A DNA stretch of 34,124 nt, from assembly GCA_964411355.1 (NCBI GenBank), contig CAYPKQ010000002.1, positions 1-34,124 of the forward strand, in the 5' to 3' direction. This DNA comes from an uncultured Lachnospiraceae bacterium (GTDB taxonomy: Bacteria > Bacillota > Clostridia > Oscillospirales > CAG-272). The notes beneath the pieces were generated by a model that saw nothing but the letters and a program-made list of their open reading frames with translations, did no database searches and was not told where the DNA came from. The stretch's first letter is position 1. Every line of letters starts with the position of its first letter. Position numbers and translations under genes: made by a program. Of this stretch, positions 1 through 30,193 are shown piece after piece.

Positions 1-104
1 GACAGCGACCGGCGATGACGCCGACTCCCAAAAACTTTTGAAAAAAGTTTTATCAAAACTTTCCCTGACAACGTCCAAGGCTACTCTTTGCTAAATTACT
101 GTTT
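1..104. repeat. Partial copy (right arm, cut by the window edge) of a hairpin-rich intergenic repeat ending in AAATTACTGTTT
   Basis: nt 1-62 align by eye at roughly 90% with 4711-4772. It has the same sub-hairpins (CGGCG..CGCCG; AAAACTTTT..AAAAGTTTT). It ends in the family terminal 12-mer at 93-104. Confidence 0.75.
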
Positions 105-153: not shown

Positions 154-948
154 ATGGTTAACGAGTTTGAAATCAAAAAACAGATATGCGAAATTGGCAA
201 GCGTATCTACGCAAAGGGAATGGTTGCTTCAAATGACGGTAATATTTCCGTTAAGCTGAACGACAATGAGTTTCTCTGCACACCCACAGGCGTTTCCAAG
301 GGCTTTATGACCCCCGAATACATCTGCAAGGTTGACAGAGACGGTAAGGTCCTTCAGGCAAATGCTGGTTTTAAGCCCTCTTCCGAGATCAAGATGCACA
401 TGAGAGTTTATAAGGAAAGACCCGATGTAAATTCTGTTGTTCATGCTCATCCTCTCTATGCAACATCTTTCGCTATTGCAGGTATTCCGCTTACAGAGCC
501 TATCATGCCCGAGGCAGTTATCGCTCTCGGATGCGTACCGATAGCTGAATACGGAACACCCTCAACAGAGGAAATCCCGGATGCTGTATCAAAGTACCTC
601 CAGCACTATGATGCTGTTCTTCTTGCAAATCACGGCGCACTTTCCTTCTCCGATAGCCTTCTCAATGCTTATCACAAGATGGAATCCCTTGAATTCTATG
701 CACAGCTTCTTTATCAGTCAAAGATGCTCGGTGGCCCTAAGCAGCTTACAGATTCTCAGGTTCAGAGACTTTACGAGATCCGTCGTCAGTTCGGTCTTAA
801 GGGCAAGCACCCCGCAGACATCTGCCCCAATGTAAAGGCAGGCAAGCCCAGCTGTCACGGCTGCGGCGGCTCTTGCTCCCACGGCAGTGCAGATGCTGAT
901 ACAGTTGCAATGATAACAAAGCTCGTTCTTGAGCAGCTTGGCAAATAA
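154..948 (+). CDS. Class II aldolase/adducin-family enzyme (fuculose/rhamnulose-1-phosphate aldolase-like) with a Cys/His-rich linker and a C-terminal encapsulation-peptide-like helix
   Basis: 264-aa ORF with an AAGGAG RBS 8 nt upstream. Family hallmarks are NDGNISVK, TPTGVSKG, PSSEIKMH and VVHAHP (metal-binding His region). The C-terminal tail is ...CPNVKAGKPSCHGCGGSCSHGS-ADADTVAMITKLVLEQLGK. Confidence 0.85.
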   Translation: MVNEFEIKKQICEIGKRIYAKGMVASNDGNISVKLNDNEFLCTPTGVSKGFMTPEYICKVDRDGKVLQANAGFKPSSEIKMHMRVYKERPDVNSVVHAHPLYATSFAIAGIPLTEPIMPEAVIALGCVPIAEYGTPSTEEIPDAVSKYLQHYDAVLLANHGALSFSDSLLNAYHKMESLEFYAQLLYQSKMLGGPKQLTDSQVQRLYEIRRQFGLKGKHPADICPNVKAGKPSCHGCGGSCSHGSADADTVAMITKLVLEQLGK

Positions 949-957
949 TTTTGCTCC

Positions 958-1431
958 ATGAACGAGGCTGAAATCAAAAGAATAGTTGAAAATACCGTCT
1001 CGGCTCTCAAAGGCAAGAAGGAAATGACACTCATGCTTGCCGAAAGGCTTTGCGATGCTGTGATGGAAGAAGCAAAACGCATAGGTGTTAAGGCTGTTGT
1101 CTGCATTTCCGACGGTGCGGGAAATCCAAAGCTTGTCAAAAGCATGGATGATGCCTATATCGCAAGCTATGATGTGGCTCTCGGCAAGGCATATACTGTG
1201 GTGGCTCTGAAAATGTCCACCAAAAAGCTGTCTTCTCTTGCAAAACCGGGTGAAAGCCTTTACGGAATTCAGTTTACGAACGGCGGAAAGATAGTGATAT
1301 TCGGCGGTGGTGACCCTCTCCTTGGAGATGGTGGCAAGATCATCGGTGGTCTTGGCGTAAGCGGGGGCACCGAGGAGCAGGACACGGCTCTTTCAGCCTT
1401 CGGAAAACGGTATTTTGAAACTCAAATGTAA
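958..1431 (+). CDS. GlcG/DUF336 (PduO C-terminal-domain-like, putative heme-binding) protein with an N-terminal encapsulation-peptide-like helix
   Basis: 157-aa ORF lying 9 nt after the aldolase stop. It has a Gly-rich DUF336-type C-terminus (GGLGVSGGTEEQD). The N-terminus MNEAEIKRIVENTVSAL matches the amphipathic BMC targeting pattern. Confidence 0.7.
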   Translation: MNEAEIKRIVENTVSALKGKKEMTLMLAERLCDAVMEEAKRIGVKAVVCISDGAGNPKLVKSMDDAYIASYDVALGKAYTVVALKMSTKKLSSLAKPGESLYGIQFTNGGKIVIFGGGDPLLGDGGKIIGGLGVSGGTEEQDTALSAFGKRYFETQM

Positions 1432-1448
1432 TAAGAAAGGAAATAAAA

Positions 1449-2654
1449 ATGGATATTAAATCCACTGATATTGAAAGAATTGTCAGACAGGTGCTGGAAA
1501 ATATCGGAAACGACGCTTCAGCACCAAATTCCTCTGCTAAAAGCGGAAATATTCCCGAAAAGAGCAGAGTTGCAATGCTGACAAAGCTTGAGCATTTTGA
1601 TATCGAGGAGCATCCCATTCCCGAGCTTGGCGATGATGATATTCTCGTTAAGGTTGAAGGATGCGGTGTTTGCGGAACAGATGCTCATGAATTTAAGCGT
1701 GATCCATTTTCGCTTATTCCCGTGGTTCTCGGACATGAGGGCACGGGAGAGGTGGTGAAGGTCGGTAAAAATGTTAAAAAGGACAGCGCAGGCAAGCCTC
1801 TCGGCGTTGGCGATAAGGTCGTTACCTGCATGATCTTTAAGGACAACCCCGATATCACCATGTTTGACCTTAACAAGCAGAATGTTGGCGGTGCGGATGT
1901 TTACGGACTCCTTCCCGACGATGACAAAAAGCTTAATGGCTGGTTTGCGGATTACATACTCGTAAGAGGCGGCTCGACTATCTTCAATGTAAGCGATCTT
2001 GACCTTGATTCGAGAATCCTTATCGAGCCATGCGCAGTTCTCATCCACGCGGTTGAAAGGGCAAAGACAACGGGCATTCTCCGCTTCAACTCAAGAGTTG
2101 TGGTTCAGGGATGCGGACCTATCGGTCTTATCTGTATAGCAGTTCTCCGTGCAATGGGAACGGAAAACATCGTTGCTGTTGACGGCGAGGCAAAGAGACT
2201 TGAATTTGCAAAGCTCATGGGAGCAAATGAAACAGTAAACTTCAAGGAACACAAGGGAATCGAAGCTCTTGCCGGAGCTGTCAAGGACGCATTTGGCGGT
2301 TATCTTGCAGATTTTGCCTTCCAGTGTACAGGCTCTCCCATAGCTCATGCAAATATATATAAGTTCATCCGCAATGGCGGTGGACTTTGCGAGCTTGGCT
2401 TCTTCATAAACGGCGGAGATGCCACCATCAATCCTCATTTTGACATCTGTTCAAAGGAGATCACAACTGTCGGCTCTTGGGTATATACTCTGCGCGACTA
2501 TGTCACAACATTTGATTTCCTTAAGCGTGCAAAGGCAATTGGACTTCCCATGGAGAAGCTGATAACTCATAAATATCCCCTTGAAAAGATCAACGAAGCA
2601 CTTGAGACCAATCTTAAAATGGAAGGTCTTAAGATCGCCATTGTAAATGAATGA
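1449..2654 (+). CDS. Zn-dependent medium-chain (MDR) alcohol/polyol dehydrogenase with an N-terminal encapsulation-peptide-like helix plus linker
   Basis: 401-aa ORF. It carries the MDR motifs GCGVCGTDAHEF and GHEGTGEV, and a Rossmann motif VVVQGCGPIG. The first ~40 aa (STDIERIVRQVLENIG followed by the low-complexity stretch NDASAPNSSAKSGNIPEKS) precede the catalytic domain. Confidence 0.85.
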   Translation: MDIKSTDIERIVRQVLENIGNDASAPNSSAKSGNIPEKSRVAMLTKLEHFDIEEHPIPELGDDDILVKVEGCGVCGTDAHEFKRDPFSLIPVVLGHEGTGEVVKVGKNVKKDSAGKPLGVGDKVVTCMIFKDNPDITMFDLNKQNVGGADVYGLLPDDDKKLNGWFADYILVRGGSTIFNVSDLDLDSRILIEPCAVLIHAVERAKTTGILRFNSRVVVQGCGPIGLICIAVLRAMGTENIVAVDGEAKRLEFAKLMGANETVNFKEHKGIEALAGAVKDAFGGYLADFAFQCTGSPIAHANIYKFIRNGGGLCELGFFINGGDATINPHFDICSKEITTVGSWVYTLRDYVTTFDFLKRAKAIGLPMEKLITHKYPLEKINEALETNLKMEGLKIAIVNE

Positions 2655-2668
2655 TAAAGGGTGATAAA

Positions 2669-2983
2669 ATGGGAAAAGCAGTTGGAATAATCGAGGTTTT
2701 CGGTCTCACTGCGGCAATGGTCGCAGTTGATGCGGGCTGTAAGGCGGCAAATGTTACCGTTGAAACACTCGATAAGAACAAGCCCGGCAATGCAGATGCG
2801 CTTCCTGTTCCGCTTATCGTGGCGGTGAAATTCAGAGGAAGCGTTGATGCGGTAAGTGCGGCGGTAGATGCCGCAGAGCAGGCGGCAAATAATGTTTCGG
2901 GAGTTATCACAAAGCATATTATTGCAAATACCGAGGACTCTACCGAAAAAATGCTAAAATTAAATGCATTTGATAAGAATTAA
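2669..2983 (+). CDS. Divergent BMC-H (Pfam BMC-domain) shell protein with an enlarged pore-loop region
   Basis: I moved the start to the ATG at 2669 (an AAGGGTGA RBS lies upstream; the ORF-track start at 2651 overlaps the ADH stop). The BMC signature is GIIEVFGLTAAMVAVDAGCKAANV ... GSVDAVSAAVDAAEQAA. The usual K-I-G-x-G segment is replaced by LDKNKPGNADALPVP. Confidence 0.75.
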   Translation: MGKAVGIIEVFGLTAAMVAVDAGCKAANVTVETLDKNKPGNADALPVPLIVAVKFRGSVDAVSAAVDAAEQAANNVSGVITKHIIANTEDSTEKMLKLNAFDKN

Positions 2984-3001
2984 CGAAAGGAAATTGAAAA
3001 A

Positions 3002-3277
3002 ATGGCAATGGAAGCACTTGGAATGATAGAAACAAGAGGACTTGTTGCGGCAATCGAAGCGGCAGACGCAATGGTAAAAGCGGCAGAGGTAACTCTTATA
3101 GGAACAGAAAAGATCGGCAGCGGACTCGTATCCGTTATGGTAAGAGGCGATGTTGGCGCAGTTAAGGCGGCAACAGAGGCAGGAAGCACTGCTGCATCCC
3201 GCCTTGGAGAGCTTGTTGCAGTTCACGTAATTCCTCGTCCTCATGCAGATGTTGAGAAGATTCTTCCCACTCTCTGA
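3002..3277 (+). CDS. BMC-H shell protein, PduA/EutM-like (paralog 1 of 3)
   Basis: 91 aa with the canonical motifs [46 protein letters not shown] and VIPRPH. An AAAGGAAA RBS-like stretch lies upstream. Confidence 0.93.
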
Positions 3278-3293
3278 TTTTTAAGAGGAAAAT

Positions 3294-3677
3294 ATGAGAT
3301 CACTTGGATTTGTTGAGGTCAGCGGCGTAACGGCGGCGATAGATGCCCTTGACATTATGTGCAAGAGCGCAGATGTAACTCTCGTTTCCTGGGAGAGAAA
3401 GCTGGGAGGCAGACTTGTTACCCTTATGATAGAGGGGAGCGTTTCTGCGGTGAATGCGGCAGTGGAAAACGCCTGCGCATCCTGCATAAAAAAACCTGTG
3501 GCACACGCTGTTATAGCAAATCCGCATCCTGAGCTTGTACGTCTTGTTGAGCTTTCGGCATCAAGAATAAAGATGGCAGAGGGCGAAGCAGGGGGAAAGG
3601 TGGAAAGGGCTCAAAAAGAAGAAAAAAAGTCTCAAACGGCTAAAAAAACTGTAAAAACTAAAAAAGGAGATAAATAA
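3294..3677 (+). CDS. BMC-H shell protein with a ~45-aa Lys/Glu-rich C-terminal extension
   Basis: 127 aa with an AAGAGGAAAA RBS. The BMC domain is [25 protein letters not shown] ... [13 protein letters not shown] ... ANPHPE. It is followed by the tail [35 protein letters not shown]. Confidence 0.85.
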
Positions 3678-3679
3678 TT

Positions 3680-3958
3680 ATGGCACTTGAAGCACTTGGA
3701 ATGGTAGAGACAAGAGGACTTGTTGCGGCAATTGAAGCGGCAGACGCAATGGTAAAGGCAGCAAATGTAACTCTTATAGGAACAGAAAAGATCGGTAGCG
3801 GACTTGTATCCGTTATGGTAAGAGGCGATGTTGGCGCAGTTAAGGCGGCAACAGAGGCAGGAAGTGCTGCTGCATCTCACCTTGGTGAGCTTGTTGCAGT
3901 TCACGTAATTCCCCGTCCTCATGCAGATGTTGAGAAGATCCTTCCAACACTTAAGTAA
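3680..3958 (+). CDS. BMC-H shell protein, PduA/EutM-like (paralog 2 of 3)
   Basis: 92 aa and about 90% nt identity by eye to 3002-3277 and 3988-4266. It has the same canonical motifs. Confidence 0.93.
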
Positions 3959-3987
3959 TTCGAAATAATTTAAGGAGGTAATATATT

Positions 3988-4266
3988 ATGGCACTTGAAG
4001 CACTCGGAATGGTAGAAACAAGAGGTCTTGTTGCGGCAATCGAAGCGGCTGATGCAATGGTAAAGGCAGCAAATGTTGAGCTTATCGGCACAGAGAAGAT
4101 CGGTAGCGGACTCGTTTCTGTTATGGTAAGAGGCGATGTTGGCGCAGTTAAGGCGGCAACAGAGGCAGGAAGTGCTGCTGCATCTCACCTTGGTGAAATT
4201 GTTGCAGTTCACGTTATTCCCCGTCCTCACGCAGATGTTGAAAAGATCCTTCCTTCTCTCAAGTAA
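3988..4266 (+). CDS. BMC-H shell protein, PduA/EutM-like (paralog 3 of 3)
   Basis: 92 aa with an AAGGAGG RBS at 3972-3978. It is near-identical to paralog 2. Confidence 0.93.
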
Positions 4267-4275
4267 GAGGAAAAC

Positions 4276-4341
4276 GGAAAACAGACCGCTTTGCGGTTTG
4301 TTTTCCGGGCAATGTGCTCCCGTGCGGAGCATGCCGCCCGG
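4276..4341 (+). other. Two consecutive stem-loops immediately after the last BMC-H gene, with no U-tract
   Basis: The first hairpin is GGAAAACAGACCGC-ttt-GCGGTTTGTTTTCC (4276-4306, one G:U pair). The second is CCGGGC..GCTCC/GGAGC..GCCCGG (4305-4341, with an internal loop). Neither is followed by a T-run, so they are not classical terminators. They could be an mRNA-stability or processing signal, or a partial terminator. Confidence 0.45.
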
Positions 4342-4363
4342 AAAATAAACGGTTTTAATGGAT

Positions 4364-4811
4364 AAACAGTAATTTGTCGGTGAGTGAGAGCGCAGTCAGT
4401 TGAAAGTTTTGATCGACCTTTTTCAAAAGGTCGCGCTGCTCAAGCGTGCGTGCGCTTGCCGCCTCCGCAGAGGCGGAATCTCTTTGCGGCGCTTTCTTTT
4501 GCCAAGCTTTTCTTTGCGCCTTCAGCACCAAAGAAAAGCGGATAAACGATCAGCACTTACAATATTTAGTTAGTAATTTAGACACAAAATCAATATTTTC
4601 ACACTAAATTAAGCAGATTTAAACCCTTTGCCCGCTTTTTCTTTGACACCAAAGGCACAAAGAAAAAGCTTAGCAAAAAGAAATGCCGCTGAGAGCGTTT
4701 CGCTGTCTGCGGACAGCGACCGGCGATGTCGCCGGCTCCCACAAACTTTTGAAAAAGTTTGATCAAAACTTTCACCTTGCGCTCGTCCTCACTCACCGAT
4801 GAGTTACTGTT
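4364..4811. repeat. Imperfect palindromic, MITE-like element of ~450 bp built from nested GC-rich hairpins, inserted inside the BMC operon
   Basis: The left end AAACAGTAATTTGTCGGTGAGTGAG matches the reverse complement of the right end CTCACTCACCGATGAGTTACTGTT. The arms share modules GTGAAAGTTTTGATC...CTTTTTCAAAAG and GCTTTTCTTTG..CAAAGAAAAGCGG. Local hairpins include CGACCTTTT/AAAAGGTCG, CCGCCTC/GAGGCGG, CCGGCGA/TCGCCGG and GCTTTTTCTTTG/CAAAGAAAAAGC. There is no credible ORF. Confidence 0.85.
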
Positions 4812-4847
4812 AAAATTGTAAAAAATCTCTTTAAAAGGAGTAAAAAT

Positions 4848-5120
4848 ATGATAATTGGAAAAGTTGTTGGAAGTGTTGTTTCCACGAGAAAGAATGAAAA
4901 GCTTATCGGCAGCAAATTCATGATAGTTGAGGCTCTTGCAAAAACGGGCAACTGTCAGAGAGTCGTTGCTGTTGATAATGTTGGCGCGGGTATCGGAGAG
5001 CTTGTTCTCGTAACTCTCGGAAGTGCTGCAAGAATTGGTCTTGACTGCGCAAATTCTCCCGTTGATGCGGCAATCGTCGGCATAATTGATGATGAAAACG
5101 GAATACCCGACCTTAAATAA
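4848..5120 (+). CDS. eutN: BMC-P pentameric vertex protein (EutN/PduN/CcmL family)
   Basis: 90 aa with an AAAGGAG RBS. Typical motifs are MIIGKVVGSVVSTRK, VAVDNVGAG.GE.VLV and DAAIVGIID. Confidence 0.9.
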   Translation: MIIGKVVGSVVSTRKNEKLIGSKFMIVEALAKTGNCQRVVAVDNVGAGIGELVLVTLGSAARIGLDCANSPVDAAIVGIIDDENGIPDLK

Positions 5121-5122
5121 AA

Positions 5123-6439
5123 ATGGAATTAAATAAGCTTAAAGATATTTTAAGAAAAGGCGGAGTTGTGGGGGCGGGCGGCGCAGGTTTTCCCACCTAT
5201 GCAAAGCTTTCGGAAAATATCGACACGGTGATCTTAAACTGTGCCGAATGTGAACCTCTGCTAAAGCTTCACAGACAGCTTCTTGAAGAATATACAGCCG
5301 AAATTCTCACAGCATTTGATGAGATACTTGACGCCACGGGCGCAGAGTGCGGTATTATTGCTGTCAAGGCTCATTATAAAAACGCAATTTCTGCTCTTGA
5401 AGCGGAGATCGGTGAGCATAAAAGGCTTTCGATCGTGAAGTTGGGTTCGGTCTATCCGGCAGGAGATGAGCTGATACTTATAAAAGAGGTGACGGGAAGA
5501 CTTGTTCCTCCCGGAAAGCTTCCTGCGTCTGTAGGAGTTATGGTCAGCAATACCGAAACCGTCTATAATGTCTATAATGCCATAAAGGGTAAGCCGGTTA
5601 CCGAAAAATTTGTAACCGTTGCTGGCGAGGTGGCATCCCCCGTTACTCTTTGTGTGCCAATTGGAACAAAGCTCTCGGAGCTTGTGAAGAGGGCAGGCGG
5701 TCTTACGCACGAGGATGTTGAATATATAAACGGCGGTCCAATGATGGGAAGGATAGTTTCAAGTGCCGATGTGGTTACCAAAACAACCAACGCACTTCTC
5801 GTTCTTCCAAGCGATAATGTTGCCGTGATGAATAAAAAACGAAATGCAAAAATAGGGCTTCGCCGCGCCATGTCGGTTTGCTGTCAGTGCAGAAGCTGCA
5901 CCGAGCTTTGCTCAAGACATAATCTCGGATACGGTGTTGAACCCCATATGGTCATGAGAGTCCTCTCAAACGGAGGAAGCGGCGAGGTTTATAGGCTTGC
6001 AGAGTCGCTTTTCTGCTCGGGGTGCGGTCTTTGCGAGACTTATTCCTGCCCCCAGGGACTTTCTCCCGGAAGCCTTATTGCAGAGCTTAAGGCAAAGGCG
6101 AGAGAGAACGGATTTAAAGCGGAAAATCCGAAAATTTATGAACGCCGTGACAGTGATCTGCACCGTGTTTCACTTGAAAGACTCCGTAGCAGACTTGGTC
6201 TTAATAAATATGATGTTCCCGCTCCACTTGACGGAAAAATTGAGGTAAAAGCTGTAAAGATCCCATGTCAGCAGCATATAGGAGCACCTTCCGTGCCTTG
6301 CGTTAAGGAAGGCGACAGAGTTAAGGCGGGCACTCTTATTGCAGAAGCTCCCGAAGGGGCTCTCGGAGTAGATATTCACGCATCCATTGACGGAAAAATA
6401 GAATCGGTCACACAAAAATACATAAAGATTGTAAGGTAA
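5123..6439 (+). CDS. pduS: PduS/RnfC-like Fe-S flavoprotein (NADH/FMN-binding, two 4Fe-4S motifs)
   Basis: 438 aa. It has a GAGGAGFPT nucleotide/FMN motif near the N-terminus. Two ferredoxin-type Cys clusters are present (CCQCRSCTELC and CSGCGLCETYSCP). The C-terminus is an RnfC-type barrel-sandwich segment (GAPSVPCVKEGDRVKAG). Confidence 0.8.
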   Translation: MELNKLKDILRKGGVVGAGGAGFPTYAKLSENIDTVILNCAECEPLLKLHRQLLEEYTAEILTAFDEILDATGAECGIIAVKAHYKNAISALEAEIGEHKRLSIVKLGSVYPAGDELILIKEVTGRLVPPGKLPASVGVMVSNTETVYNVYNAIKGKPVTEKFVTVAGEVASPVTLCVPIGTKLSELVKRAGGLTHEDVEYINGGPMMGRIVSSADVVTKTTNALLVLPSDNVAVMNKKRNAKIGLRRAMSVCCQCRSCTELCSRHNLGYGVEPHMVMRVLSNGGSGEVYRLAESLFCSGCGLCETYSCPQGLSPGSLIAELKAKARENGFKAENPKIYERRDSDLHRVSLERLRSRLGLNKYDVPAPLDGKIEVKAVKIPCQQHIGAPSVPCVKEGDRVKAGTLIAEAPEGALGVDIHASIDGKIESVTQKYIKIVR

Positions 6440-6440
6440 A

Positions 6441-6989
6441 ATGATGAAAAAAGCACTTGGAATGATAGAATTTAAAACGGTCGCATCGGGCATCACAGCC
6501 ACCGATATAATGCTGAAAACAGCAGAGGTTGAGGTCGTTCAGGCAAATCCCGTTTGCCCCGGAAAATATCTTGCAACCATTGCCGGTGAAATAAGTGCCG
6601 TCAAGGCGGCAATCGAGGCGGCAGAATCTTATAATTCCGCTATGCTTATTGACAAATTCATCCTCGGAAACCCCCATGAGAGCGTGCAGGGCGCAATTTG
6701 CGGATGTCTTGAGGTTGTGAATAAGGCTGCCATAGGAATAATTGAGACCTTTACTGCGGCAAGTGCCGTGGTTGCGGCAGATACAGCGGCAAAAACAGCG
6801 CTTGTTGAGCTTGTTGAGGTGCGCCTTGCAAAGGGAATGTGCGGCAAATCTTACGTTATCCTTACGGGAAGCGTTTCCAGCGTCACAGCCTCAATTGAGC
6901 GAGCAAAGGCGGGAATCGAAGACGGTCTTTTCCTTGATTCGTCCGTTATTGCAGGTCCCGACCCCGGACTTTGGGAAAGTATTCTTTAA
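6441..6989 (+). CDS. pduT: Tandem-domain BMC-T shell protein, PduT-like (conserved pore Cys)
   Basis: 182 aa with two BMC domains (ALGMIEFKTVASGITATD... and AIGIIETFTAASAVVAADTAAK...). The motif PVCPGKY aligns with the ICPGKF Cys that ligates the 4Fe-4S cluster in characterised PduT. Confidence 0.85.
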   Translation: MMKKALGMIEFKTVASGITATDIMLKTAEVEVVQANPVCPGKYLATIAGEISAVKAAIEAAESYNSAMLIDKFILGNPHESVQGAICGCLEVVNKAAIGIIETFTAASAVVAADTAAKTALVELVEVRLAKGMCGKSYVILTGSVSSVTASIERAKAGIEDGLFLDSSVIAGPDPGLWESIL

Positions 6990-7001
6990 GGAGAGAGCAA
7001 A

Positions 7002-28924: not shown

Positions 28925-28926
28925 AT

Positions 28927-29043
28927 AAACAGTAATTTAGCGAACTGTAGGATACCGATTAAAAAATGAGCTGATCTGTAGGGGACGTCGAGGTCGCCGT
29001 CCCCTACAAAATACATCTTCAACAGTTCGATAAATTACTGTTT
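28927..29043. repeat. Compact complete copy (117 bp) of the AAACAGTAATTT-terminated palindromic repeat family
   Basis: The terminal inverted repeats are AAACAGTAATTTAGCGAACTGT (left) and ACAGTTCGATAAATTACTGTTT (right). The central hairpin is TGTAGGGGACG-tcgaggtcgc-CGTCCCCTACA. Confidence 0.85.
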
Positions 29044-29053
29044 GAAAACATTA

Positions 29054-29257
29054 TTACTTGTTGTGATACTCATCAAAAAGGTCGTTTGGAGTACATTCGA
29101 GAATGTCGCAAAGCGCTTTAAGATTCTCGTATTTTATTCCCGAGGTTTTATTATTGACCATGTTATTAAAATTCTGGTAACTTAATCCCAACTGAATATA
29201 AAGCCAATATTTTGTTTTTCCTTTTTCCTTTAAAATATCAAGTACGCGCAGTTTCAA
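29054..29257 (-). CDS. XRE/Cro-C1-family HTH transcriptional regulator (67 aa)
   Basis: It has the pattern LRVLDILKEKGKTKYWLYIQLGLSYQNFNNMVNNK...LKALCDILECTPNDLF. The TTG start is preceded by GGAGG-N8. Confidence 0.8.
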   Translation of the reverse strand: MKLRVLDILKEKGKTKYWLYIQLGLSYQNFNNMVNNKTSGIKYENLKALCDILECTPNDLFDEYHNK

Positions 29258-29258
29258 G

Positions 29259-29377
29259 ATGTATACCTCCGTTATATAATGTAAAAATCAGTGTATGTAT
29301 ACATAATATATCAAAAAAGGACTTGACAAATAGATTTTTACATTGTATAATGTATACATTACATATTATGTATACAT
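29259..29377. promoter_or_regulatory. Divergent control region: a consensus promoter for the SLH gene plus a reiterated ATGTATACAT operator-like palindrome
   Basis: TTGACA (29323-29328), a 17-nt spacer, then TATAAT (29346-29351). The perfect 10-bp palindrome ATGTATACAT occurs at 29295-29304, 29350-29359 (overlapping the -10) and 29368-29377. A 9/10 copy, ATGTATACC, lies at 29259-29267 and overlaps the XRE gene RBS. Confidence 0.75.
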
Positions 29378-29434
29378 AACATCGATCATATGCCTGCGGG
29401 TATTTGAAATAAAAATTACAAAAGGAAAAAAATC

Positions 29435-30112
29435 ATGAAAATCAAAAAAATGCTCTGTTTAGCTCTCGCAATTACTTGCTGCATCGGAATACTTGCAACA
29501 AGTGCTTTTGCAAAAAAAGAAATGCCATTTGACAATTATGTCAAAAACAAAACTATGTACAATTATACTTTTAAAGATGTTAAAAGAAGTGATTGGTATT
29601 ATTCCTGCATTAAAAACTGTTATGAGCTTGGTCTTATCAACGGGAAAGGCAACAACACTTTTGAGCCGGACGGTAATATGACAGTTGGTGAAGCAATTGC
29701 GTTTGTTGTAAGGGCTCATGTAAGAAGAAACGGTACTCCCATTATAGCCCCCTTTGACAATACGGATCCACTCTATGCAACATACGTTGATTATGCCATG
29801 AGACATCATTTTAAACTATTTAATACTAAGCTTAATAAAGATGTTGAAATCGATTGGTCGGTTCGAAATTATATTGATCTTGACAGAAAGATAACATTTG
29901 CTGAATTTTGGGTTTTGGCATATTCGGCACTTGGCGAAAATGATCTTTACGGTAGTATTTTGACGGCTTCCGATATTATGCTTGATATTTATCCTTGCTC
30001 ATCACTTCATAGCCGCATTGTTGCTTATAGAAATAGCCTTGAAAACGATTTGACAGCTCCCATTACCCGTGCCGCGGCAGCCCGCATTATCAATTGCTTT
30101 TTCTCAAAATAA
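29435..30112 (+). CDS. Secreted SLH (S-layer homology) domain protein
   Basis: 225 aa. The signal peptide is MKIKKMLCLALAITCCIGILATSAFA. The SLH motif is FKDVKRSDWYYSCIKNCYELGLINGKGNNTFEPDGNMTVGEAIAFVVRA. A degenerate SLH-like C-terminus (LTAPITRAAAARII) follows. Confidence 0.8.
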   Translation: MKIKKMLCLALAITCCIGILATSAFAKKEMPFDNYVKNKTMYNYTFKDVKRSDWYYSCIKNCYELGLINGKGNNTFEPDGNMTVGEAIAFVVRAHVRRNGTPIIAPFDNTDPLYATYVDYAMRHHFKLFNTKLNKDVEIDWSVRNYIDLDRKITFAEFWVLAYSALGENDLYGSILTASDIMLDIYPCSSLHSRIVAYRNSLENDLTAPITRAAAARIINCFFSK

Positions 30113-30152
30113 TATTATTGTTTTAGCATAAGTTTTTCCAAATGTCGCCGAT

Positions 30153-30193
30153 AAACAGTAATTTAGCGCACTGTAGGCGAATGAATTTCATTT
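30153..30193. repeat. Half copy (left terminus only) of the AAACAGTAATTT repeat family
   Basis: AAACAGTAATTTAGCGCACTGTAGG matches 28927-28951 at 24/25 positions. A short AATGAA/TTCATT hairpin follows. I found no right terminus. Confidence 0.7.

Follow-up and report, generated by a model that had tools for sequence, protein, structure and literature searches.

The window, by which we mean the whole stretch of 34,124 nucleotides that was analysed, comes from an uncultured Lachnospiraceae bacterium and carries near its start a BMC operon whose ORFs span 154–9869. The operon encodes a class II aldolase, an HbpS-like protein, a zinc alcohol dehydrogenase, five BMC-domain shell proteins, EutN, an RnfC-like protein, a double-BMC-domain protein, a DeoR regulator, an aldehyde dehydrogenase and PduL/PTAC (exact-protein look-ups with the window's EutN and RnfC-like proteins gave no record). 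Its ORFs are tightly packed, and the 581 nt at 4267–4847, between BMC-H and EutN, are the sole large gap among them. Three BMC-H paralogues (2986–3285, 3664–3963 and 3972–4271) are 87–89% identical in DNA sequence, and some relatives carry one BMC-H more or one fewer (L128 compared with L127), showing that the shell-gene array is itself variable in copy number.

Within the gap lies a 448-bp palindrome that consists, in order, of a terminal inverted repeat, a unit, an AT-rich spacer, an inverted unit and a second terminal inverted repeat:

4364–4811, no strand assigned: complete foldback (MITE-like) element of 448 bp, delimited by its inverted repeats, its fold and the empty sites in L001 and L127
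4364–4388, plus strand: left terminal inverted repeat AAACAGTAATTTGTCGGTGAGTGAG; L138 has this terminus at the corresponding site, and other elements of relatives carry it too
4399–4541, plus strand: left arm, one four-hairpin unit of ~150 nt (nhmmer profile match, E = 5e-22)
4542–4632, no strand assigned: AT-rich central spacer (foldback loop), not conserved within the family
4633–4776, minus strand: right arm, a second unit, inverted, with its 3' end toward the left unit (nhmmer, E = 6e-30)
4788–4811, minus strand: right terminal inverted repeat (CTCACTCACCGATGAGTTACTGTT on the plus strand), resembling the right end of the L139 element

The terminal arms (4365–4388 and 4788–4811) are 24 nt long and 88% complementary, with all three mismatches becoming G-U pairs in plus-strand RNA. 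Inner inverted-repeat blocks pair 4398–4429 with 4746–4777 (91%), 4480–4511 with 4664–4695 and 4508–4537 with 4637–4666, at complementarities of 78–91%. Global alignment of the left half with the reverse complement of the right half gave ~70% identity including gaps and a score of 152, as against −24 ± 12 for shuffles, and the terminal 24-mer (at up to three mismatches) was found at two places in the window but in none of 100 shuffles. The RNA of the gap has a predicted minimum free energy of −251.7 kcal/mol (z = −14.7 versus shuffled sequence), and that of the opposite strand is just as stable (−262.1 kcal/mol, z = −14.4).

Several claims of the first-pass annotation were borne out by these searches: the single large gap in a packed operon; an imperfect inverted repeat, with ends and halves alike to the extent just given; short GC-rich hairpins within each arm, which our inverted-repeat search recovered; and two stem-loops upstream, which we map to 4275–4289/4293–4307 and 4296–4320/4326–4350. 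Its statement that there is no convincing promoter inside agrees with our consensus scan, which found no two-hexamer sigma-70-type promoter on the plus strand within the element, with the caveat of a motif at the junction between the right terminal repeat and the flank. There, TGTTAAAAT at 4808–4816 resembles an extended −10 (TGnTATAAT with one mismatch; TGnTAAAAT) ~32 nt upstream of the eutN start codon and, judging by its sequence, might serve as a weak promoter at the junction; L138 and L122 do not share it. A terminator scan within the element returned weak look-alikes only and no canonical terminator. The element's single ORF (4599–4796, minus strand, 65 aa) matched no Pfam family, and Rfam 15 gave zero gathering-level matches over the whole window, its matches in 4200–4900 being sub-threshold miRNA-hairpin look-alikes only.

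The palindrome is an insertion. Looking up the operon's last BMC-H protein retrieved the same operon in a sister species (L001), with a glycyl-radical enzyme and activase upstream, at 90.7% nucleotide identity to the window upstream of the gap and ~82–84% downstream. Its BMC-H/EutN gap is 126 nt long and has no palindrome; the alignment ends at window position 4355 and restarts at 4806, so that the palindrome is exactly the piece that L001 is missing. The site is likewise empty in three more distant lineages, represented by the ten assemblies L127–L136 (gap of 119 nt), by L147 (109 nt) and by L151 (similarly short), giving empty gaps of 109–126 nt overall. These are the empty-site alleles of the operon that the earlier annotation had proposed to seek in relatives.

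In other relatives the same position is filled, by different sequences. A distant lineage (L122/L123) carries there an element of ~180–195 nt with termini AAACAGTAATTTATC...ATAAATTATTGTTT and a hairpin cargo, bounded by AAACAGTAATTT and AAATTATTGTTT, that is unrelated to the window's. In species C, which is 91.4% identical to the window and whose strains are 98.2–100% identical to one another, L138 and L141 have at the same junction a 165-nt element with a left end matching the window's and a REP-like inverted pair as cargo, while L139 and L142 on the one hand and L144 on the other hold different, longer cargos; cargo differs even between strains with 98.6% identity. Over 364 nt, the L139 element in turn matches an element from the PFL/AE gap of L138 at 82% identity, and the PFL/AE, pduV/aldolase and post-PTAC gaps are all filled in some strains and empty in others. 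We also observed that L138 has elements with AAACAGTAATTT-type termini in four intercistronic or flanking gaps of the operon (277–596, 2189–2427, 6686–6850 and 11971–12136), and that both occupancy and cargo of the species-C operon gaps vary between strains 98.6% identical. Several metagenome contigs terminate at these operon sites. Elements with shared termini have repeatedly landed in, or been exchanged at, the BMC-H/EutN gap, as they have in other gaps between genes of this operon. The constant occupancy of the junction in the window species, species C and the L122 lineage could reflect selection instead of a hotspot.

The window itself contains more of this material. The terminal 12-mer AAACAGTAATTT has six exact occurrences in it (at 93, 4364, 9930, 28927, 29032 and 30153), compared with 0.32 expected, and a profile search found three unit copies in the 34 kb: 4399–4541 (plus), 4776–4633 (minus) and 66–1 (minus). 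Outside the BMC-H/EutN gap we recognise the following:

1–104, minus strand: 3' portion of a second copy of the element, truncated by the start of the window, with unit 1–66 and terminus AAATTACTGTTT at 93–104
9930–9941, minus strand: solo terminus AAATTACTGTTT, downstream of the pduL/PTAC terminator
28927–29043, no strand assigned: mini-element of 117 bp with termini AAACAGTAATTTAGCGAACTGT and ACAGTTCGATAAATTACTGTTT, its cargo a REP-like GTAGGGG...CCCCTAC hairpin
30153–30177, plus strand: solo terminus, matching the mini-element's left end at ~96% identity

The copy at 1–104 sits at the pduV/aldolase junction of the same operon, its positions 1–45 being 93% identical to 4712–4756; L001, L139 and L142 have an empty site here (30 nt), and L138, L140 and L141 a different foldback. 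In relatives the pduV stop codon lies within AAAAAATAAAATTTTAC, a sequence that in the window stands at 115–131, to the right of the element, so the last codons of pduV have possibly been altered or duplicated by the insertion, whose left junction falls beyond the window start. The terminus at 9930–9941 is probably an element remnant, L138 carrying a complete element after PTAC, and the mini-element is in part up to 92% identical to that post-PTAC element of L138. The first-pass annotation did not mention these other copies and ends in the window; an absence of further copies, which it had named as part of what would refute its reading, is contradicted by the copies found.

Some smaller observations concern the distal part of the window. 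A 27-nt direct repeat, ATAAACAGTAATTTAGCG[A/C]ACTGTAGG, 96% identical between its copies at 28925 and 30151, flanks the mini-element together with a 1.1-kb low-GC (33%) segment that holds an SLH-domain ORF (29435–30112) and AT-rich palindromic promoter-like DNA; the stretch 28925–30177 may represent a small islet linked to these ends. REP-like palindromes with a GTAG head occur as cargo, inside elements that share these termini, both here (GTAGGGGACGTCGAGGTCGCCGTCCCCTAC, 28966–29010) and in L138 (an inverted pair of GTAGGGGCGATCATTGATCGCCC, 6720–6820), which hints at a REPIN/RAYT-type system in these Clostridia.

Beyond the window, the 24-base arm pattern was found in at least 120 contigs from Clostridia, Oscillospiraceae and Acutalibacteraceae MAGs of animal and human guts, with ~15 contigs from a single MAG among the matches listed. 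A profile built from the matches to this pattern defined the ~150-nt unit and gave 154 matches, half of which lay no more than 400 nt from a locus end. Metagenome assemblies are fragmented by the family, as is seen from the many contigs that end in it; repeats of this type can also give rise to spurious ORFs. Where two units lie close together at other loci, ~16 pairs are convergent (plus then minus, with spacers of 45–260 nt), three are in the same orientation and none is minus then plus. Since convergent pairs recur and the opposite order was never seen, the foldback is the family's normal architecture. A foldback chimera from sequencing or assembly would be another source of such a structure, given that chimeric reads can yield palindromes and that many metagenome contigs break here, but the arms of a chimera would be nearly identical, whereas those in the window are just ~70% identical and their hairpins differ by compensatory changes. 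With the same architecture present in ~16 independent assemblies, we regard an artefact as exceedingly improbable.

Within the family alignment, 16 of the 23 predicted pairs in the unit hairpins have changes on both sides, and this sub-hairpin covariation implies some constraint on single-strand structure. Family neighbours in other genomes are unrelated housekeeping genes, for example DnaA, HPr kinase, EF-G and gyrase, and by a crude ORF heuristic 20 sites are co-directional, 18 convergent and 10 divergent, with no decisive bias. The covariation and the very stable predicted fold would also suit a structured non-coding RNA gene or a riboswitch-like cis-regulator in the gap. Both strands fold equally well, however, the units are found in either orientation and in every kind of gene context, the site is polymorphic for presence and absence, and no Rfam family or promoter was found, so that we give this explanation very little credence.

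Plasmid and phage collections held no match, and IMG/VR only two, indicating that the element is not phage- or plasmid-borne; a metagenome scan with the terminal repeat AAACAGTAATTTAKCGNACTGT gave one match, unrelated-looking. Searching the literature by topic and by sequence string brought up no name under which the repeats have been published, and this hairpin-mosaic family, widespread in uncultured gut Clostridia, is apparently unnamed.

The elements are clearly mobile or exchangeable, and we looked for the enzyme that might move them. No transposase was found in the window, no recurrent transposase near 132 elements, and no transposase or RAYT-type gene with matching ends in the window or near family units. 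Clustering of 815 ORFs near units revealed no recurrent family (the largest cluster being a BspA-type LRR protein), and a Pfam census of 109 neighbouring ORFs returned housekeeping genes only and no RAYT-like gene. In one widely spaced unit pair (2.9 kb apart, L049), the enclosed ORF resembles an ordinary transporter gene, as judged by eye from its translation. A comparison of 10 elements showed no consistent flanking direct repeats, and no clean target-site duplication was found at four sites: filled and empty PFL/AE alleles differ by none, and at pduV/aldolase there is a possible AAAATAA duplication, but in A-rich low-complexity sequence. The likeness of the subterminal GTCGGTG to the IS26 end is presumably coincidental, as, we assume, are those to a dif/Xer site and to the IS608 TTAC target.

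These data bear on the possibility that the AAACAGTAATTT termini are recombination sites, and that a dedicated recombinase or gene conversion swaps hairpin cargos between them instead of classical transposition. At least five different cargos, in two species, share an identical left junction, the ends are mosaic (the window's left end is like that of L138, its right end like that of L139) and a target-site duplication is not detectable, as this reading would have it. At the same time, no recombinase was found, elements with the same termini lie at many unrelated sites, as transposition predicts, and allelic recombination via the flanking genes combined with nested insertions and deletions could look alike; we therefore think such a docking site unlikely.

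Among known repeats, one close parallel is with foldback MITEs of bacteria. At 448 bp the element is below ~600 bp, non-coding and bounded by terminal inverted repeats; it is multi-copy and intergenic, with dispersed copies that include paralogues within species C (L139 and the PFL/AE element of L138); and it shows presence/absence polymorphism among relatives, shared ends with variable cores and breaks in short-read assemblies. It differs in that an insertion sequence sharing its ends was not found in the window or beside family units, nor a clear target-site duplication at the sites compared, and in that it consists mostly of long (~190 nt) arms of conserved sub-hairpins rather than of short repeats around a neutral core. 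REPINs and BIMEs are inverted REP doublets mobilised by RAYT transposases (PMC3116915, PMC3337134), and the element resembles them in being an inverted doublet of a hairpin unit with a spacer, extragenic and with compensatory changes, in lacking an obvious target-site duplication and in its mosaic modules, while sister elements contain REP-like GTAGGGG...CCCCTAC cargo. However, REPs are 20–40 nt long and the present units are ~150-nt four-hairpin structures with distinct 24-nt terminal repeats; no RAYT gene was seen here, and the host belongs to gut Clostridia, not Proteobacteria. The element is not a short REP doublet with a GTAG-type head, GTAG-headed palindromes being cargo of sister elements only.

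Correia elements (CREE, Neisseria) and ERIC (enterobacteria) are MITEs within transcription units and are co-transcribed with them, as the present element would be. The terminal repeats of Correia elements form an RNase III site, ERIC alters mRNA decay, and the expression of flanking cistrons can shift (PMC10969869). No sequence relationship exists: Correia elements are 100–155 bp long, with 26-nt terminal repeats and TA duplications, and may carry promoters and an IHF site, whereas the window element differs in size, termini and host, shows no TA duplication and is not a CREE. The comparison bears on a possible mode of action, by analogy, and not on membership. The pneumococcal BOX, RUP and SPRITE repeats (PMC3049150) are, like the present family, modular, hairpin-forming interspersed repeats of Firmicutes, often co-transcribed and variable between strains; they differ in sequence and module structure, BOX being built of tandem A-B-C modules and the window element being a long foldback with terminal inverted repeats.

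Conserved at this junction, upstream of the element, is a pair of hairpins at 4276–4350, directly 3' of the BMC-H stop codon in all seven lineages examined:

4276–4306, plus strand: hairpin P1 (4276–4289 with 4293–4306), a 14-bp stem with the invariant U-rich GUUUGUUUUCC as its 3' strand
4307–4339, plus strand: hairpin P2 (4307–4320 with 4326–4339), with covariation
4296–4350, plus strand: alternative extended P2 helix, in which GTTTGTTTTCC (4296–4306) pairs with GGAAAATAAAC (4340–4350); it excludes P1

Across the seven lineages 99% of P1 cells are paired, with compensatory changes; in P2 both sides have changed in 4 of 10 lower-helix pairs and 2 of 2 apical-helix pairs. The alternative helix is paired in 97.5% of cells, and a G-C to A-U change in it also preserves P1 pairing. 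Its 3' strand GGAAAATAAAC is a repeat of P1's 5' strand and offers the invariant GTTTGTTTTCC an alternative partner, so that GTTTGTTTTCC can pair with either of two GGAAAAYARAC copies. Both conformations are 97–98% paired in lineages whose coding DNA is merely 71–90% identical, and 7–8 pairs have changes on both sides, while slid controls drop to 36–62% paired. A covariance model found one match per locus, at this junction only (83–106 bits), and none elsewhere in 414 kb; the module at 4276–4350 matched no Rfam family. Separate from the mobile element, it is what the BMC-H/EutN gap ancestrally contained. In sequence, P1 resembles a weak, short-stemmed intrinsic terminator with an A-tract and a U-tract, consisting of a core stem ACCGC/GCGGT followed by the invariant TTTGTTTTCC. 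The terminator scan flags the P1 site on the minus strand only and the core stem is short, so P1 could be no more than a leaky terminator; it would act as such and/or as a 3'-end stabiliser of the shell-gene mRNA.

We conclude that 4364–4811 is very probably a non-autonomous foldback element of the MITE/REPIN kind, which the operon tolerates and which would be transcribed along with it. The empty sites, the further copies, the at least 120 loci of the family and the lack of coding capacity strongly support the first of the two readings offered by the first-pass annotation, that of a tolerated MITE-like insertion. The element inserted a few bases downstream of the conserved two-hairpin module and would be carried passively, most likely as part of the operon mRNA, since it contains no gene, no internal promoter by the consensus scan and no canonical terminator. 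In that RNA, the terminal repeats would close a 24-bp helix, continuous with G-U pairs, under an imperfect duplex of ~190 bp. Correia elements are co-transcribed and cut by RNase III at their paired terminal inverted repeats (review PMC10969869); by analogy, the duplex here would be an RNase III substrate, and RNase III may cut the element RNA. Cleavage would separate the shell-gene mRNA from the eutN-to-pduL mRNA, and the 3' end of the former would be protected by the conserved hairpins.

The second reading in that annotation was that the palindrome has been co-opted as an attenuator or processing element, an RNA duplex kept because it holds expression of eutN and of the enzymes after it below that of the shell hexamers. 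The window species, every species-C strain sampled and the L122 lineage all have the junction filled, to the same nucleotide position, every cargo is hairpin-rich, the terminal repeats would give a 24-bp RNA helix and no internal promoter was found, all of which could be expected of such an element; Correia elements provide a precedent (PMC10969869), and pentamer gene dosage and position matter for BMC morphology according to a preprint (bioRxiv 10.64898/2026.05.01.722140). However, the operon is intact without the insert in the sister species L001 and in three further lineages (L127–L136, L147 and L151), and since these relatives with the same operon lack the palindrome, it is not required. 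Cargo varies in sequence and in length (165 to 448 nt), even within one species and between strains 98.6% identical, the same elements occur in the PFL/AE, pduV/aldolase and post-PTAC gaps and, as a family, beside unrelated housekeeping genes, and the conserved hairpin module would already be able to serve such a role. A co-opted hexamer/pentamer attenuator is not supported by these findings, and we consider it doubtful; any regulatory effect of the palindrome, including one on protein ratios, is best viewed as a by-product of a tolerated insertion and not as a designed attenuator.

The attenuator idea fits the two-hairpin module better than the palindrome. Being single-copy, syntenic and supported by covariation, the module is the better candidate for setting shell-to-vertex expression, as a putative leaky terminator or RNA switch between the two. 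The palindrome is mobile DNA; in these glycyl-radical-enzyme BMC loci it is the module that is the candidate for a native control point. Cargo turnover at fixed junctions of one operon offers a natural system for studying the effect of co-transcribed MITEs on the processing of polycistronic mRNA, and this turnover, together with the conserved two-state hairpin, is of more interest than the element itself. A combination of the readings above, in which the gap after the module is a dedicated docking site where strains exchange AAACAGTAATTT-bounded hairpin cargos and so tune BMC stoichiometry through the RNA duplex, seems to us improbable; if true, it would amount to a strain-variable, selectable modular insulator or processing cassette acting with a previously undescribed two-state RNA element.

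Two other features of the operon may be mentioned. Between the element and eutN, CTCTT...AGGAG at 4827–4840 forms, in the minimum free energy fold of the gap, a possible 5-bp hairpin hiding the eutN Shine-Dalgarno sequence; it is common to L001 and L138 and absent from the distant lineages, and, on this predicted fold, may damp translation of the pentamer gene. Downstream of the operon, ~650 nt at 10016–10700 are AT-rich (36% GC) and have no convincing ORF, yet are ~84% conserved with L001; their minus strand contains two copies of an AAGGAG-N8-ATGAACTAA mini-ORF (Met-Asn-stop).
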